A stretch of 64,000 bases of DNA from a virus (IMGVR_UViG_3300034101_003180:748-64747); one strand, 5' to 3'; shown: positions 3,544 through 57,508, counted from the first letter of the stretch. Notes: generated by a model from the letters alone, not told the origin. Program-made: numbers and translations.

Positions 3544-3933
3544 ATGGAAAATATTTATGACCCAAATGTAGTATTAGGTGATACTTTACGTTGGTCTATG
3601 GCTATCAAAAATAGTGCTGGATCCAGTTATGATCTAACTGGATCCACATTATCTATGCAAATTAGATCTGGATATTATCCTAGTTCCGTTTTAGTATCAT
3701 ACAGTACCGGAATAACAGCAGGGACTATAATTTCAATACCAGAAGGTTCTACTGGTGGTTTAGCTGCAGCCACAGGTGGTTCTGTAAATATCTGTGTTGG
3801 TTCTAATTATACTAAAAATTTTCCACCATATACTCAAATTTTTTATGATCTGCAACAGATAACATCTGGTGGAGATACTATAACTCTTTTAAGAGGAAAA
3901 ATAAACACAATTTTAGATGTAACAAGAACATAA
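3544..3933 (+). CDS. BppU/Ig-like virion structural protein
   Basis: GDT...YDLTG...MQIR...YDLQ...LLRG pattern typical of small baseplate-associated beta proteins. Confidence 0.6.
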
Positions 3934-46612: not shown

Positions 46613-47221
46613 ATGTACGATATCAATATCCCACATTTTTATTGTTTGTTAAGAAAAGAGCATCTTTACCAAAACAAAGATCATTTCTTTGAATATGAAA
46701 AGGTCGCAGTCTTTGGGGCACAATCAAGTGCTGGAAAGGCTTTGTTGTTTACAGTAATGTTGGATAACGGAACAATAAGAAGTAGAGTTCCAATTCATAT
46801 GTTATGCAGTAAAGAAGGCCCATCAGATCCATTAGATTACTTGCAACTTTGGGATTGTTTTTCTGAAAATGTTACAGTCACAACTTATAGTTTTTTAAAG
46901 GGTGCCAGAGCAAAAGTTATATTTAAAGATAAAAGCCACTCTTGGGGAAATTATAAAATGACATTTGATTGGTATGATAACCCATACAGCAACGAACCAT
47001 CTCAATACAAATGTCTTCACATGATTGAACTGGATAATGGAAATTATGCTCTACAACCAAACAATAGAATATTTTGGAAAGAAATGTCTTTCACAACCAA
47101 GCCATTTCCAGAAAAACCAGATTATAAAGTTGACACACAGGAGTATAGATGCGAGAATAAAAGCGATAGATGGATTATAAGTGATGATGATAATTATTAT
47201 TATGATATAAATCCTACATAA
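46613..47221 (+). CDS. Conserved-looking phage hypothetical protein
   Basis: NIP.FYC..RKE.LY, LQLWDCFS, LDNGNYALQPNNRI; start 2 nt after tRNA-Tyr. Confidence 0.75.
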   Translation: MYDINIPHFYCLLRKEHLYQNKDHFFEYEKVAVFGAQSSAGKALLFTVMLDNGTIRSRVPIHMLCSKEGPSDPLDYLQLWDCFSENVTVTTYSFLKGARAKVIFKDKSHSWGNYKMTFDWYDNPYSNEPSQYKCLHMIELDNGNYALQPNNRIFWKEMSFTTKPFPEKPDYKVDTQEYRCENKSDRWIISDDDNYYYDINPT

Positions 47222-51848: not shown

Positions 51849-51881
51849 GGCAACCCCGAGTTAATCGGGGTTGTTTCTTTC
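51849..51881 (+). terminator. Intrinsic terminator
   Basis: GGCAACCCCGA-GTTAA-TCGGGGTTGTT-TCTTT. Confidence 0.75.
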
Positions 51882-52139
51882 TACAAAAGCAACCCAGTCT
51901 TGATGAACTACATGGTTGCCTTGATATCCATCTTTAATCTTACTTACATCCCACCAGATAATATCACCAACTTGGATATCCTCAGTAAGTTTATTACCAA
52001 CTGCTTCTACTTTTGCTGGGACAATTTTTGAACTTGATCGTTCATTGTATATAATTCCTGCAGCAGTAGTCTTTTGACCACCGATCAAAGACTTTGCGAG
52101 TATCCATTTACCTACTGGTTTCATTGGTTTGTCTTTCAT
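51861..52139 (-). CDS. groES: GroES/Cpn10 co-chaperonin
   Basis: MKPVGKWIL...KTTAAGII...VEAVG...IQVGD; start 2 nt after tRNA-Gln. Confidence 0.8.
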   Translation of the reverse strand: MKDKPMKPVGKWILAKSLIGGQKTTAAGIIYNERSSSKIVPAKVEAVGNKLTEDIQVGDIIWWDVSKIKDGYQGNHVVHQDWVAFVERNNPD

Positions 52140-52141
52140 AA

Positions 52142-52212
52142 TTCCTTCGCTAGGATTCGAACCTAGAAAGAGAGATCCAAAGTCTCCCGTGTTACCGTTA
52201 CACCACGAAGGA
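52142..52212 (-). tRNA. trnQ: tRNA-Gln(UUG), no CCA
   Basis: TCCTTCG/CGAAGGA, CTTTGGA loop, TTCGAAT. Confidence 0.9.
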
Positions 52213-52758
52213 GTGAACCTTGGCACAATAATTATTCATTATAATGCCAGAGGCAGTACCAACATTGATGCTTCTCACAGAACCATACTGAGGAATGTAA
52301 AGAAGATCATCACACATATCTAGAACGTTTTCAGGAACTCCAATTTGTTCCTGCCCAAAGATCATAATATAATGCACATTGGGGTCAAAGTCAAATGCAT
52401 TTATGTCTTTTGCTTCACGTACATTGTCAATTCCCAATAGTTTAACTTTGTTTTCATGCTTGGAAATAGTTTCTTCAATGTAGGAGCCGAGATCTTCAAT
52501 GCTCCGGACATGACGAAGGTGGGTGTAGTGATGAGTACCGACAGTCCCCCGCCTATCGTACTTTTTATTCCCATAGATTACGACTTCTTTCGCCAGAAAC
52601 GCATTGCTGTTGCGTATAATGGTAGCAATATTAAAATCGTTCCCAATGTTGCAACACACAACAGCATAGTTATGGCGCTTGCTGTCAAGATTAGTGAGTA
52701 TAGCTTCGTCATCCCAATATTTATAATGGTCTATGAGATTACGGGTTTCCGGATTCAT
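52198..52758 (-). CDS. TrmH/SpoU-family RNA methyltransferase
   Basis: N...DFNIATIIRNSNAF, IFGQEQIGV, IPQYGSVRSINV..ASGI SPOUT motifs; stop lies inside tRNA-Gln. Confidence 0.88.
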   Translation of the reverse strand: MNPETRNLIDHYKYWDDEAILTNLDSKRHNYAVVCCNIGNDFNIATIIRNSNAFLAKEVVIYGNKKYDRRGTVGTHHYTHLRHVRSIEDLGSYIEETISKHENKVKLLGIDNVREAKDINAFDFDPNVHYIMIFGQEQIGVPENVLDMCDDLLYIPQYGSVRSINVGTASGIIMNNYCAKVHSFVV

Positions 52759-52900
52759 ATACAGCTAGTTTTACTTCAAGATCTTTTACACGGGCTTCCA
52801 AACGTTCAAACACTATGAGTTGCATAAAAAATGTTATGCATAAAATTGCTGATGCAAACAACGCATCATAGTATGTGAAATATTTTTTCTCGTTATTCAT
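52739..52900 (-). CDS. Small single-TM protein
   Basis: MNNEKKYF...ALFASAILCITFFMQLIVF. Confidence 0.55.
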   Translation of the reverse strand: MNNEKKYFTYYDALFASAILCITFFMQLIVFERLEARVKDLEVKLAVYESGNP

Positions 52901-53138
52901 CTTTTCCCTTTCCCCATCCACCACCATTTTCATATTCCTTTAAAATTGAATGACTTGTATCTACATGATCTTTATAAATTTCATTGAGTCTATGTTGCAT
53001 TGGAAAATGCTTCAAAACTCTTGCAGCCCGTTCTCTCACATCTGACGGAACTTTGGGCGTGTGAGCAGGATTTAAAAGATCATAAAGAAAGTTTTTGACG
53101 GCAACTAAACTATGATACTCTTCGTGTGGTAATGTCAT
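52893..53138 (-). CDS. BPSL0761-family-like small protein
   Basis: MTLP.E...L.....FL.DL.....TP.VP..VR.RA...L.HFP; start 2 nt after tRNA-Glu. Confidence 0.7.
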   Translation of the reverse strand: MTLPHEEYHSLVAVKNFLYDLLNPAHTPKVPSDVRERAARVLKHFPMQHRLNEIYKDHVDTSHSILKEYENGGGWGKGKDE

Positions 53139-53140
53139 AA

Positions 53141-53214
53141 TGATCCCTAGGGGATTCGAACCCCTGTTATGGCCTTGAAAGGGCCGTGTCCTAGACCGAC
53201 TAGACGAAGGGACC
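53141..53214 (-). tRNA. trnE: tRNA-Glu(UUC), no CCA
   Basis: GGTCCCT/AGGGATC, CTTTCAA loop, TTCGAAT. Confidence 0.9.
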
Positions 53215-53217
53215 AGT

Positions 53218-53382
53218 TCATTCGTTCTTAGCTTTGATTTCAAGGGCAAGGAAAGCAAGAATCATACCAACAACACTTCCAACAACAGCACCTTCGTAAT
53301 TTTTGTAAAAGAGAAATCCAACGAGATTGATGGCGATCAAAATTATCATTGGAACCATGAGTTTGTTCAGTACATTTTTCAT
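53218..53382 (-). CDS. 54-aa two-TM protein (not in ORF track)
   Basis: MKNVLNKLMVPMIILIAINLVGFLFY...; TTGACT-16-TAATAT 6 nt upstream. Confidence 0.65.
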   Translation of the reverse strand: MKNVLNKLMVPMIILIAINLVGFLFYKNYEGAVVGSVVGMILAFLALEIKAKNE

Positions 53383-53436
53383 ATGCTTATATTAGCATAC
53401 AGGGGAGCATAGTCAAGAAATTGTCTAAATAATTTT

Positions 53437-54060
53437 ATGGACTACCTTACAAAATATTATAAAAATTTATCGGAAGATTTATCTCATAAAGTTAAGTTGT
53501 TAGAAAATTTTCTTTATGAAATGGATACACAGATTTCTAGAGGAAACGTATCAGCAGAAACATCTGCATCTTCTGCACCTGAGATAGACATATATACCAG
53601 TCCTTTTGATCCCCGTTTTTTTGACTCTGATAAGCCGACCTATCCGGAGCTTCCGGGTCTTCCTAGAAGACCAGACAGGAGAGTTCCAAGCGATATAGAC
53701 GGTCCAGAATTTCGTAGAGGAGCGCCACCACATCCTGGACCACGACCAGAACCAAGAGATGGAGAAACCGAAGAACAATATCAGGAACGTCTTCGTGCAT
53801 GGGAAGCGGCAGAAAGACGGAGATCGATGTGGTTTAAGATTCGTAGCTACAATGTAGATAGTGTTCCTGGTGGAGAATATTTAGACATAAGAGTTTGGCC
53901 AAATCCTCCAAAAATGCCGTATCGTCGTATTGATAATGGAAATGGTGGATACAATTATGATGCATTGCCACCATTCAGAGTAGGTGATACGTACATTACT
54001 CAAAATGGAGATGTATGGCGTGTGAATCAACAAGGATATTGGGAACAGGTAAGTAGCTAA
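53437..54060 (+). CDS. Putative internal protein; N-terminus paralogous to 44139
   Basis: MDYLTKYYKNLSEDL vs MNYLTNYYKNLSEQL. Confidence 0.7.
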   Translation: MDYLTKYYKNLSEDLSHKVKLLENFLYEMDTQISRGNVSAETSASSAPEIDIYTSPFDPRFFDSDKPTYPELPGLPRRPDRRVPSDIDGPEFRRGAPPHPGPRPEPRDGETEEQYQERLRAWEAAERRRSMWFKIRSYNVDSVPGGEYLDIRVWPNPPKMPYRRIDNGNGGYNYDALPPFRVGDTYITQNGDVWRVNQQGYWEQVSS

Positions 54061-54061
54061 T

Positions 54062-55171
54062 TTATAGAAACTTATTTACTTCCTGTATTCTCTCAGCGAT
54101 CCATTCCATACAGTTCACAGCCATACTATTTCCAAGAACTTTATACCTGTGACCATCTGGACACTCAGGCTTTCCACGCCAAGGAATTAAAGTATAATCA
54201 TCGGGAAAGCCCTGAAGTCTTTCACATTCACGGGGAGTCAGTTTACGCACTCGACTTCTCTGTTGGGTTGGCACAGAAACAAATAAGCCACACTCGTCAC
54301 CAGCAGGACCACCTGAGCCTTTCGCCCATTTGCTGGTTACGGTATCTGAGCAAGTAGGATCGTTGCCACCGTAGAATGGCATGTTCACGATGGCAGCAAA
54401 CGAAGCATTATCTCTTGCCAAAGTATGACAAGGATCACCGGGCACACGACTCTGCCTATTGATGGGTGCAGTTATTTGGAAGAGGTCGTAGGGAACGGGG
54501 ATGTAGGTGTCTCCGTCTTCTCGGTGTCTTGACCAGCCTCTTGCTCCAAGGCACTTTGCAATATCTTCGGGAGAACCTTCCCCCGCTTTGCTGCGCGACT
54601 TAGAATGCCTTTGCAGGCTTTGGGACTCAAAAAGAACTTGGGCTGCACTGGTTGTGTCTCCAAGACATCCGACAACGAAGACACGTCTCCTACGCTGCGG
54701 CACGGCAAAGGGGTGCCCGTGTGTTCTGACCCATTGAGCGTCCAAGATCCGGTAGGCCCACCCATACCCCAAGTCCCCCAGCGCCCCGAGGAAGGTTCCA
54801 AAATCCCTTCCTCCGTTGCTGGACAGAACACCGGGGACATTTTCCCACACAATCCATCGGGGGCGCTGACTCCTAGCGATCTCAAGGTAAGTGAGCATGA
54901 GTCCTCCACGGGGATCGGAGAGTCCTCCTCTGAATCCTGCCAAAGAGAAAGACTGGCACGGAGTACCCCCAACGAGGAGGTCAATTTGTTCTTTGATTTC
55001 CCATTTTTCATAATTTGTCATGTCTCCAAAGTTTGGAACATTCGGATAATGGTGAGCCAATACAGCAGATGGAAATGGATCAACCTCGCTGAATCCAACG
55101 GGTTGCCACCCAAGAGGATGCCATGCAACCGTAGCGGCTTCAATACCAGAACATACTGATAAGTATTTCAT
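54062..55171 (-). CDS. C5 cytosine DNA methyltransferase
   Basis: SVCSGIE, GGTPCQSFS, WENVPG, PQRRRRVF, LTPRECERLQGFP, GNS. Confidence 0.93.
   Translation of the reverse strand: MKYLSVCSGIEAATVAWHPLGWQPVGFSEVDPFPSAVLAHHYPNVPNFGDMTNYEKWEIKEQIDLLVGGTPCQSFSLAGFRGGLSDPRGGLMLTYLEIARSQRPRWIVWENVPGVLSSNGGRDFGTFLGALGDLGYGWAYRILDAQWVRTHGHPFAVPQRRRRVFVVGCLGDTTSAAQVLFESQSLQRHSKSRSKAGEGSPEDIAKCLGARGWSRHREDGDTYIPVPYDLFQITAPINRQSRVPGDPCHTLARDNASFAAIVNMPFYGGNDPTCSDTVTSKWAKGSGGPAGDECGLFVSVPTQQRSRVRKLTPRECERLQGFPDDYTLIPWRGKPECPDGHRYKVLGNSMAVNCMEWIAERIQEVNKFL
54472..55011 (-). CDS. Nested alternative-frame polypeptide resembling M.EcoHK31I beta subunit (start may be 54840)
   Basis: SLSDVLE...KFFLSPKAC.GIL.RA.KRGK.LP..L..AL in a shifted frame within the MTase. 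Confidence 0.65.
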   Translation of the reverse strand: MKNGKSKNKLTSSLGVLRASLSLWQDSEEDSPIPVEDSCSLTLRSLGVSAPDGLCGKMSPVFCPATEEGILEPSSGRWGTWGMGGPTGSWTLNGSEHTGTPLPCRSVGDVSSLSDVLETQPVQPKFFLSPKACKGILSRAAKRGKVLPKILQSALEQEAGQDTEKTETPTSPFPTTSSK

Positions 55172-55599
55172 ATTAATTCGTTAGAAGAATCAGTTGTATG
55201 TGGCACACCGTCTCTTATTCGCTCCAAATATCTGACGGCATTCAAAACACCTTCAAGATCATCACCTAATTTTCCAATTCCAATATTACAGAGATCACAT
55301 ATCCAACCACGAAACTTATTGGTCTTGTAATCATGATCTAAAATAAGTTTTCCTTTTGGTCTATCTTTCGGACTTTTTCCACAACATTGACATAATTCTG
55401 TAACAGGAGGTGCAGTCTTATGTATTTCTCTTATAACTTTATCAAATTTTCTACCACAATCCACACAACGAGGATGATAATAATTTCTATCTTTTCTAAA
55501 AGAAGAAATGGGTTTTCTTTCCTTGCAACGAATACAAATTTTTGTAGTAATCAATTTAGGTTGACTTACTTCAAAAATTTTGTTTAATTCTTCTTTCAT
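55168..55599 (-). CDS. Endonuclease VII-like His-Me finger nuclease
   Basis: CxxC repeats, LDHD.....RGWIC..CN..IG...D; start 8 nt after tRNA-Pro. Confidence 0.85.
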   Translation of the reverse strand: MKEELNKIFEVSQPKLITTKICIRCKERKPISSFRKDRNYYHPRCVDCGRKFDKVIREIHKTAPPVTELCQCCGKSPKDRPKGKLILDHDYKTNKFRGWICDLCNIGIGKLGDDLEGVLNAVRYLERIRDGVPHTTDSSNELI

Positions 55600-55607
55600 T
55601 GTATTAG

Positions 55608-55681
55608 TCGGGCATGCTGGATTTGAACCAACGACATCTTGCTCCCAAAGCAAGCACTCTACCAAGCTGAGTTAATGCCCG
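55608..55681 (-). tRNA. trnP: tRNA-Pro(UGG), no CCA
   Basis: CGGGCAT/ATGCCCG, TTTGGGA loop, TTCAAAT. Confidence 0.9.
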
Positions 55682-56121
55682 CGCTTCCTTCTTGCAATTA
55701 TAGCAGCAATTCCAAGCATTGCAAGAACTCCTGGTGCAGGAACATCAGGAGGCTCACATTCGCTTCCATTCAATTCGGTAGAAGCCTGCATACAGACGCT
55801 CTCAATGCGATCATGGGCAACAGGAATGAACATATCCTGATCCACGGTCTGAACGGTCATCACAAGCCTACCACCGTTGAAGATCTTATGGACCCAAAAT
55901 CCGTCAAAAGATCCCATGAAGTATTTATTTGCAGTTTCAGGATAATTTGAAACCGTATTATTTGAAATAGACTCCTTGATGGGCTCGGTGATCGTGAACT
56001 GCGTATCGAACACAAGCCTATCGGTGAAAGTGACTTCCTGATAAATTGCTCCCTGATACTCGGAGCGAGAGAAAGTCTGGCCGTTTGAATTATAGATTGT
56101 AGATGTAGGTACAATAGCCAT
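55672..56121 (-). CDS. Protein with PEP-CTERM-like (VPAPG) sorting tail
   Basis: VPAPGVLAMLGIAAIIARRKR; stop lies inside tRNA-Pro. Confidence 0.75.
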   Translation of the reverse strand: MAIVPTSTIYNSNGQTFSRSEYQGAIYQEVTFTDRLVFDTQFTITEPIKESISNNTVSNYPETANKYFMGSFDGFWVHKIFNGGRLVMTVQTVDQDMFIPVAHDRIESVCMQASTELNGSECEPPDVPAPGVLAMLGIAAIIARRKRGH

Positions 56122-57461: not shown

Positions 57462-57508
57462 GCGCATACTATAGCATGAGAAAGCCCTGTGTCAAGATAA
57501 ATACTTGT

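Follow-up and report, generated by a model that had tools for sequence, protein, structure and literature searches.

Protein genes ending inside tRNA genes of a T4-like lake phage: a probable by-product of compact gene packing

Introduction

RNase P cuts at nucleotide +1 of a transfer RNA (tRNA), and ribosomes at stop-less ends of messenger RNA (mRNA) are substrates for transfer-messenger RNA (tmRNA) with SmpB, or for back-up systems. In the tRNA punctuation model, tRNAs between mitochondrial coding regions define mRNA ends on excision, and mitochondria complete some stop codons by polyadenylation; we know of no tmRNA in animal mitochondria. Punctuation of polycistronic mitochondrial transcripts by tRNAs was described to generate non-stop mRNAs (PMC9674279; for this and the other reports cited, we refer to the accessible parts of their text). 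In bacteria, Hudson, Lau and Williams (2014) proposed coding sequences that overlap tRNA or tmRNA genes as a source of non-stop mRNA, e.g., Carsonella smpB-ssrA. In 2031 genomes, 250 of 115,660 valid tRNA or tmRNA genes were overlapped by an upstream, same-strand, Pfam-positive coding sequence (PMC4131195). Programmed non-stop messages have been described as well, i.e., arfA, through an RNase III site (cited in PMC4131195), and Bacillus subtilis brfA, which encodes a ribosome-rescue factor (PMC6881298). Here we analyze two protein genes that end inside tRNA-Gln and tRNA-Pro, respectively, in the virus contig stretch IMGVR_UViG_3300034101_003180:748-64747. The whole stretch of 64,000 nucleotides is called the window in the following, and positions are counted from its first letter. 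We propose that the overlaps are probably a tolerated by-product of compaction and of tRNA and nuclease cassette shuffling at tRNA borders.

The window covers almost the entire length of an IMG/VR virus record (64.7 kb, about 36% complete) from a T4-like, tailed lake-water phage. Among the genes of the record are those for a DNA polymerase of the T4 type, for ribonucleotide reductase and for tail fibre proteins, and 23 of the 24 DNA sequencing runs with the stretch are labelled lake water metagenome. No RNA run containing the stretch was found among the runs matched. GenBank phages included no close relative, DNA matches being limited to tRNAs and the cytosine methylase gene. A literature search, with supplementary files and some journals outside its scope, found no account of genes ending inside phage tRNAs and the principle only in the accessible text of PMC4131195.

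Results and discussion

Two reading frames close inside tRNAs

Both junctions are on the minus strand (Table 1). At the first, a gene for a SpoU-family RNA 2'-O-methyltransferase ends with ...AAG GTT CAC / TCC TTC GTG GTG TAA, the slash marking the point at which nucleotide 1 of tRNA-Gln (52212) follows at a codon boundary, in frame. The last four codons (SFVV) are shared with the tRNA, and the TAA is its nucleotides 13–15. At the second junction, the gene for a PEP-CTERM-like protein ends with ...AAG CG/C GGG CAT TAA. Nucleotide 1 of tRNA-Pro is here the third base of an Arg codon, and nucleotides 8–10 of the tRNA are the TAA stop codon. ARAGORN and Rfam gave identical 5' ends for tRNA-Gln and for tRNA-Pro, and in the mRNA context each cloverleaf was the minimum-energy fold with few unpaired bases before +1. 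A preliminary description of this DNA had reported both overlaps, and by ARAGORN, Rfam and the sequence itself they are real and exact in their coordinates. It had also proposed that a cut at +1 leaves a message without stop codon. This holds as a prediction, because the frames need tRNA nucleotides 1–15 (Gln) or 1–10 (Pro) for their completion.

Table 1 Features of the two junctions and of their surroundings in the window.
Feature	Position	Strand	Evidence
SpoU-family RNA 2'-O-methyltransferase gene, 186 residues	52198-52758	-	Pfam PF00588
tRNA-Gln(UUG), 71 nucleotides, U1-A72 pair, CCA not encoded	52142-52212	-	ARAGORN; Rfam RF00005, 63.4 bits
Overlap, 15 nucleotides = tRNA-Gln nucleotides 1-15, TCC TTC GTG GTG TAA	52198-52212	-	Sequence
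PEP-CTERM-like gene, 149 residues from ATG	55672-56121	-	Pfam PF07589, sub-threshold
tRNA-Pro(UGG)	55607-55681	-	ARAGORN; Rfam 55608-55681, 64 bits
Overlap, 10 nucleotides = tRNA-Pro nucleotides 1-10, C GGG CAT TAA	55672-55681	-	Sequence
Permuted (two-piece) tmRNA gene, tag ANIKAAPMRMAA	47196-47504	+	ARAGORN; Rfam tmRNA_permuted RF04321, 47226-47413, 53.6 bits (cut-off 47)
GroES/Cpn10-like gene, ATG 2 nucleotides after tRNA-Gln discriminator base	51861-52139	-	Pfam Cpn10, 20.8 bits (cut-off 21.1), sub-threshold; NCBIfam GroES, E 2.8e-5, under cut-off
Endonuclease VII-like gene, starts 7 nucleotides after tRNA-Pro	55168-55599	-	Pfam PF02945, E 5e-13
tRNA-Glu(UUC)	53140-53215	-	ARAGORN, Rfam
Membrane-like open reading frame, 54 residues, stop 2 nucleotides before tRNA-Glu	53218-53382	-	Open reading frame call
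Best promoter-like site, TTGACA-16 nucleotides-TATAGT, 11/12, head of minus-strand gene/tRNA array	57468-57495	-	Consensus match only
GC-rich hairpin, 11 base pairs, between convergent gene arrays	51849-51875		Consensus match only

The first protein had been named TrmH. Its family stood: PF00588 (SpoU_methylase) matched residues 32–174 with an E value of 6.4e-23 and 81.9 bits (cut-off 29.7), and the domain is complete at residue 174. Scores against the NCBIfam equivalog models were all far under cut-off, i.e., 47.2 of 160 bits for RlmB, 41.9 of 227 for TrmH (NF008295) and 33 of 190.6 for TrmL, and likewise for TrmJ. The name TrmH is hence not established. Judged by its domain, the product is a member of the SpoU superfamily with its specific target unassigned.

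For the second protein, the name PEP-CTERM fits insofar as all 24 positions of PF07589 were aligned (residues 126–147), but the whole protein scored 15.4 bits and its last 32 residues 19.4 bits, both under the cut-off of 20.7. PF07589 was nevertheless the best match in five of five tests (four full-length homologues including that of the window, and the window's last 32 residues). We found no NCBIfam match for this protein. Its sorting-signal-like tail, VPAPGVLAMLGIAAIIARRKR, is complete before tRNA-Pro, which supplies only G, H and the stop codon. PEP-CTERM signals in bacteria accompany exosortase systems. As a side observation, such a signal in a phage protein family (window and L082–L090) is a hint that the host may be Gram-negative and have exosortase.

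Constraint falls on the tRNA

To compare tRNA-Gln genes, we aligned 25 distinct sequences of one tRNA-Gln type, found in the window and its relatives, and counted cloverleaf pairs. All 525 of 525 stem cells were paired, 17 of 21 pairs showed compensatory change, and in the acceptor stem six of seven pairs had changed on both sides; U1-A72 was invariant. Neither shuffled nor slid controls came near the observed pairing. By this co-variation, the tRNA-Gln genes are genuine and under strong selection of the tRNA type.

T13, A14 and A15 were invariant in 25/25 sequences, including eight that the SpoU gene does not overlap (seven with the stop before the tRNA, one far), and D-loop G17 and G18 were invariant too. 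We considered whether the TAA is kept as a stop codon and rejected this, since it is equally invariant in tRNA-Gln without overlap. Protein tails ending in SFVV, SSVV, SLVR or SSVM occur, and every change is mirrored on the 3' acceptor strand. Because the tail follows acceptor-stem co-variation and the TAA is invariant regardless of overlap, we regard the tRNA as the constrained partner and the peptide tail as a passenger. The overlap should moreover be hard to lose by point mutation, as the acceptor stem and the conserved ...NNYCAKVH helix are the only places where a new stop codon could arise. So small a number of stop-creating sites would explain persistence without selection for the overlap.

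The two junctions in relatives

We took the best 80 of 132 IMG/VR places with SpoU relatives (68–97% protein identity), extended their frames to the stop codon and placed them relative to ARAGORN calls. The stop was inside tRNA-Gln in 42 loci, 5–19 nucleotides before it in 24 and far from it in six; no adjacent tRNA-Gln was called by ARAGORN in the remaining eight. Inside the tRNA, 39 of 42 stops were at nucleotides 13–15 (ARAGORN sometimes gives 14 by adding one base), with SpoU domain and tail kept in frame in many metagenomes. Locus L013 has a TGA at ARAGORN nucleotides 2–4 of a different tRNA-Gln type, which we read as nucleotides 1–3 of its 7-base-pair acceptor stem. In L060/L061, the SpoU copy is frameshifted and closes only at a TGA of the tRNA acceptor stem.

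Among the 24 loci with an own stop before the tRNA, 23 place it in a hairpin loop; the hairpin is GC-rich, and a T-rich run comes after it. The exception, L039, has a different C-terminus. In L022, L038, L044, L031, L041 and L049, for example, the element extends from about 36 nucleotides before to 20 nucleotides after the SpoU stop, and the T-rich run abuts tRNA-Gln. From its sequence, it looks like a terminator or a hairpin that protects a 3' end.

In the far class, tRNA-Gln is 516 or 868 nucleotides away. Four of these six loci (L075, 3576–4085; L017, L066 and L078) have a 169-residue open reading frame with HNH motif between the SpoU gene and a second tRNA-Gln type. This frame, sub-threshold for Pfam HNH (21.2 of 21.4 bits), was found in three SpoU sub-lineages and itself ends with a TAG at nucleotides 8–10 of the second tRNA-Gln. 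The SpoU tail ahead of it seems to be left over from the 5' end of the first tRNA-Gln and is part of a 10-base-pair AT-rich hairpin. Relics also occur where no tRNA-Gln was called: in L018 the tRNA is deleted and a coding relic of its first bases, NSFVVR, is kept, and in L012 the same TAA is still present, within tRNA-like sequence not called by ARAGORN. The same tRNA family was borrowed at least three times, i.e., twice by the SpoU gene and once by the HNH gene.

In a maximum-likelihood SpoU tree (82 rows, 58 of them different; last 14 residues omitted; L014 and L056, both inside, left out), the state changed at least 12 times between inside and outside, and inside rows were found to either side of the midpoint root. 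Recombination of a module of tail plus tRNA, and not repeated mutation, may account for some of this scatter. All reconstructed exits from the SpoU overlap were insertions, deletions or module swaps and not point mutations.

The tRNA-Pro overlap occurred in one of 10 related loci, L081, which is on the same contig as L001. This independent metagenome contig is 97–99% identical and has both junctions. Homologues with 94–97% identity end in other tails (...KRSRLNI, ...KNTFRKE, ...SKRKR), have no adjacent tRNA-Pro and are followed by different genes. Among them, homology stops in the last 6–10 codons, and each lineage has its own neighbour. Three more distant PEP-CTERM-like homologues stop 5 nucleotides before tRNA-Glu. 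In Logan contigs of lake metagenomes (four DNA runs), the 5' end of tRNA-Pro also adjoins other sequences. By these comparisons, the tRNA-Pro junction is a recent event. Recurrence in relatives, which the preliminary description had named as a check, thus divides: the SpoU overlap is widespread, but 24 loci stop before the tRNA and the tRNA-Pro overlap is confined to that single locus.

Behind tRNA-Pro, the window continues with the endonuclease VII-like gene and a cytosine-5 DNA methylase gene. The 99%-identical twin L081 is devoid of the endonuclease gene and has the methylase gene directly behind tRNA-Pro; the endonuclease VII-like gene is a likely mobile insertion. For both the HNH and the endonuclease VII-like frames, presence and absence among relatives and Pfam matches (sub-threshold for HNH) point to nuclease activity and mobility.

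Overlap frequency and known systems

How closely genes are packed before tRNAs was surveyed in the window's record and 13 related contigs with together 93 tRNAs, counting upstream same-strand open reading frames of at least 60 residues that end nearby. Such a frame preceded 46 of the 93 tRNAs; 38 stopped 2–51 nucleotides before the tRNA and eight inside, seven of these at tRNA-Gln and one at tRNA-Pro. The tRNA-Gln of contig G014 is on a stretch boundary and is not among the eight, although the locus analysis places it inside. Two further overlaps were left uncounted, i.e., a frame in L015 that ends at tRNA-Tyr nucleotide 6, where the 5' acceptor strand looks disrupted, and a doubtful 122-residue frame in L011 that ends at tRNA-Tyr nucleotide 30. 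In the window alone, two of eight ARAGORN tRNAs are overlapped. Spacers before tRNAs form a continuum of very short lengths, and the local overlap rate sits at its extreme.

The two junctions resemble the bacterial overlaps as these appear in the accessible text of PMC4131195. There as here, an upstream coding sequence with a protein domain enters a valid tRNA in the same orientation and stops inside it, and maturation should leave a stop-less message; few evolutionary events are involved, with the same tRNA hit in related genomes. A curated family is matched by the SpoU gene, and the PEP-CTERM-like gene is sub-threshold and conserved in 10 loci. The present case differs in that it concerns a phage with its own permuted tmRNA, in its frequency (8/46 compared with 250/115,660) and in the repeated borrowing of one tRNA family. 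With arfA and brfA, as far as the accessible reports describe them (PMC4131195, PMC6881298), it shares that an endonuclease cut upstream of the stop codon would tie the fate of the product to tmRNA activity. In contrast to the phage overlaps, these devices are conserved and act on rescue factors themselves, which gives a clear feedback logic. The phage proteins are unrelated to rescue, their cleavage and tagging are predictions only, and conservation among orthologues is not of the arfA/brfA type, with one overlap at 1/10 loci and the other at 42/80. As in mitochondrial punctuation, embedded tRNAs would set mRNA ends, and overlaps would give messages without complete stop codon; in the phage, however, most genes (38/46) have their own stop before the tRNA.

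The phage tmRNA

The window's two-piece tmRNA gene has both a covariance score over cut-off and a tag reading frame, ANIKAAPMRMAA. No SmpB was found in the 64.7-kb record, itself 36% complete. We searched RF04321 in 32 records, all of them fragments. Of the 16 standard-overlap contigs, 13 had a tmRNA over cut-off, the three others being fragments of 27–37 kb; the one contig with the frameshifted variant had none. In the lineage with hairpin plus own stop it was found in 0/4 contigs (24–67 kb, 11–37% complete), which amount to about one independent lineage. Other non-overlapping layouts had it in 8/9 cases (far 4/4, no tRNA-Gln called 3/4, and L039). With eight of the 13 searched contigs without SpoU overlap having the tmRNA, its presence does not seem to hinge on that overlap.

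The tmRNA tags vary among relatives (ANIKAAPMRMAA, ANELAMAA, ANQLAMAA, AEELAIAA), and all end in AA and not in the usual LAA. A conserved open reading frame of about 190–245 residues without family match (46622–47221, plus strand) ends 5 nucleotides before the Rfam start of the tmRNA and 26 nucleotides inside its ARAGORN limits. The same layout was seen in G015, G017 and G020; it would overlap the tmRNA precursor only if the two-piece tmRNA really begins before the stop of the frame, and it was not counted as an overlap in these four contigs.

How the overlaps may arise and persist

At both junctions, a single transcript must contain gene and tRNA, because the reading frame is completed inside the tRNA. 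In the reading that we prefer, a by-product of packing, single tRNA genes would be set between small same-strand genes with spacers of few bases, and at two junctions the spacer would have become negative. An upstream gene without own stop would then end on a triplet that the tRNA needs structurally, U13-A14-A15 in tRNA-Gln and U8-A9-A10 in tRNA-Pro. On uncut transcripts, ribosomes would finish the protein on the TAA of the tRNA. After an RNase P cut at +1, the upstream SpoU fragment would end in ...GUU CAC-3', its stop removed, and would presumably be handled like any 3'-truncated message, i.e., by trans-translation with host or phage tmRNA and by 3' exonucleases. Stopping just before or inside a tRNA would make a modest difference, because other tRNAs have spacers of 2–17 nucleotides, a distance over which exonucleases would arrive at those stops, too, before long. 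The SpoU/tRNA-Gln overlap would last until insertion, deletion or recombination removes it, and the tRNA-Pro junction would be a recent event of the same kind. That non-stop messages result from such overlaps is sound logic, and the principle is already published for bacteria (PMC4131195, accessible text).

Three observations weigh against this reading. The overlap rate is about two orders of magnitude above the bacterial one, a gap that compaction may or may not explain. The SpoU overlap is the commonest state in its family and spans the midpoint root, and so long a persistence also fits selection for the overlap. Finally, the hairpin lineage and the standard-overlap contigs differ in tmRNA content as given above.

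The preliminary description had gone further and proposed selected devices: RNase P would turn both messages into non-stop messages, the phage tmRNA would tag the products, and tRNA maturation would so shut the proteins off. By the geometry, an RNA molecule that has been cleaved can indeed no longer have its stop intact, the permuted tmRNA gene is only about 5 kb away, its distribution (13/16 in standard-overlap contigs, 0/4 with hairpin plus own stop) points the same way, and programmed non-stop messages do exist. We still regard such a switch as unlikely, and conservation, as judged from the sequences compared, gives it no support. The tRNA-Pro overlap is that of one locus in 10, the tree has the SpoU overlap abandoned many times, and the stop triplet is kept for tRNA reasons. 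The tmRNA was over cut-off in contigs without SpoU overlap too, and the set free of it is about one lineage of largely incomplete fragments. Moreover, just two of eight window tRNAs are affected, the two proteins share nothing, and SmpB was not found in the record. The accompanying claim that full-length protein and mature tRNA are mutually exclusive was overstated, as one transcript may be translated first and processed later. Even less credence goes to translational coupling, in which a ribosome terminating at nucleotides 13–15 would hold the 5' acceptor strand and free an AAGGA for the GroES-like gene, this gene then being translated only from the uncut precursor under upstream translation. 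Its sequence basis is as follows: in CGAAGGA-A-TT-ATG, the AAGGA, the sole Shine-Dalgarno-like bases of this gene (start 52137–52139), is the 3' acceptor strand of tRNA-Gln (52142–52148). Apart from this reading, the AAGGA belongs to a strand that the predicted fold pairs, and the ribosome-binding site should be masked when the tRNA folds or lost when it is excised. Across the overlap loci, about half keep an ATG 2–3 nucleotides behind the tRNA without separate site, but others, e.g., L011, L014, L015, L032, L042 and L064, have a separate AGGAG 10–20 nucleotides on or a different downstream gene, so that the arrangement is not conserved.

A SpoU enzyme that binds its substrate tRNA within its own message and thereby modulates processing or termination would account for a SpoU gene directly before tRNA-Gln in 66 of 80 loci (42 inside and 24 just before) and would suit the invariant D-loop G17 and G18. 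To our knowledge, however, G18 is near-universal in tRNAs. With the target unassigned and all equivalog scores under cut-off, with 14 of 80 loci having the gene without adjacent tRNA-Gln, and with no tRNA annotated within 2.5 kb of the SpoU homologue in Rhodococcus phage NiceHouse, we think self-control in cis very improbable. An artefact, i.e., a decayed tRNA, a mis-called frame end or an assembly chimera, is the least credible explanation and can practically be set aside. Logan contigs do break at tRNAs, and among the pieces listed none spans 55661–55718, across the junction of the PEP-CTERM-like gene with tRNA-Pro. The tRNA ends are agreed on by two programs, though, co-variation in tRNA-Gln is strong, 39 loci, spread over many metagenomes, keep SpoU domain and tail in frame, and an independent IMG/VR contig has both junctions.

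There is a slim chance that tRNA excision sets the life span of neighbouring messages and that lineages found two solutions, tmRNA or a stop within a hairpin. If so, lineages with tmRNA would let genes end inside tRNAs, trans-translation would clear the fragments, and the methyltransferase dose per tRNA would be capped; in the lineage where no tmRNA was found, the hairpin would act as a terminator or as protection for the cut 3' end. Taken alone, the case is an ordinary consequence of compaction. Should tRNA maturation often make stop-less messages, large phages would carry a built-in ribosome-rescue load, which would suggest a concrete job for phage-encoded tmRNAs. The SpoU locus offers a natural comparison here, with 80 loci that have the overlap, do not have it or keep relics of it, a functional tRNA and a hairpin sister lineage.

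Gene array and further features

On the minus strand from 57495 to 51849, small genes alternate with single tRNAs. The hairpin at the far end of this array (Table 1) is the likely end of the minus-strand unit carrying tRNA-Gln. A scan for promoters and terminators was no richer than shuffled sequence (32 compared with 29.1 and 8 compared with 8.4, respectively). Since the counts equal those of shuffles, the promoter-like site is no evidence of function, and we argue co-transcription from geometry. An alternative genetic code was considered and rejected, as neighbouring genes are all well formed under table 11.

ARAGORN called eight tRNAs in the window, seven of which were confirmed by Rfam, as was the tmRNA. 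The eighth, tRNA-Ser(GCU) at 3729–3820 (plus strand), was called by ARAGORN only, with no Rfam match at gathering score, and is spanned by a 129-residue open reading frame (3544–3933). In GenBank phages, the SpoU protein had six distant matches with 25–41% identity. Amid the minus-strand array, a 207-residue open reading frame on the opposite strand (53437–54060, plus strand), for which no Pfam or NCBIfam match was found, adjoins the cytosine methylase gene and is possibly a partner of this methylase.

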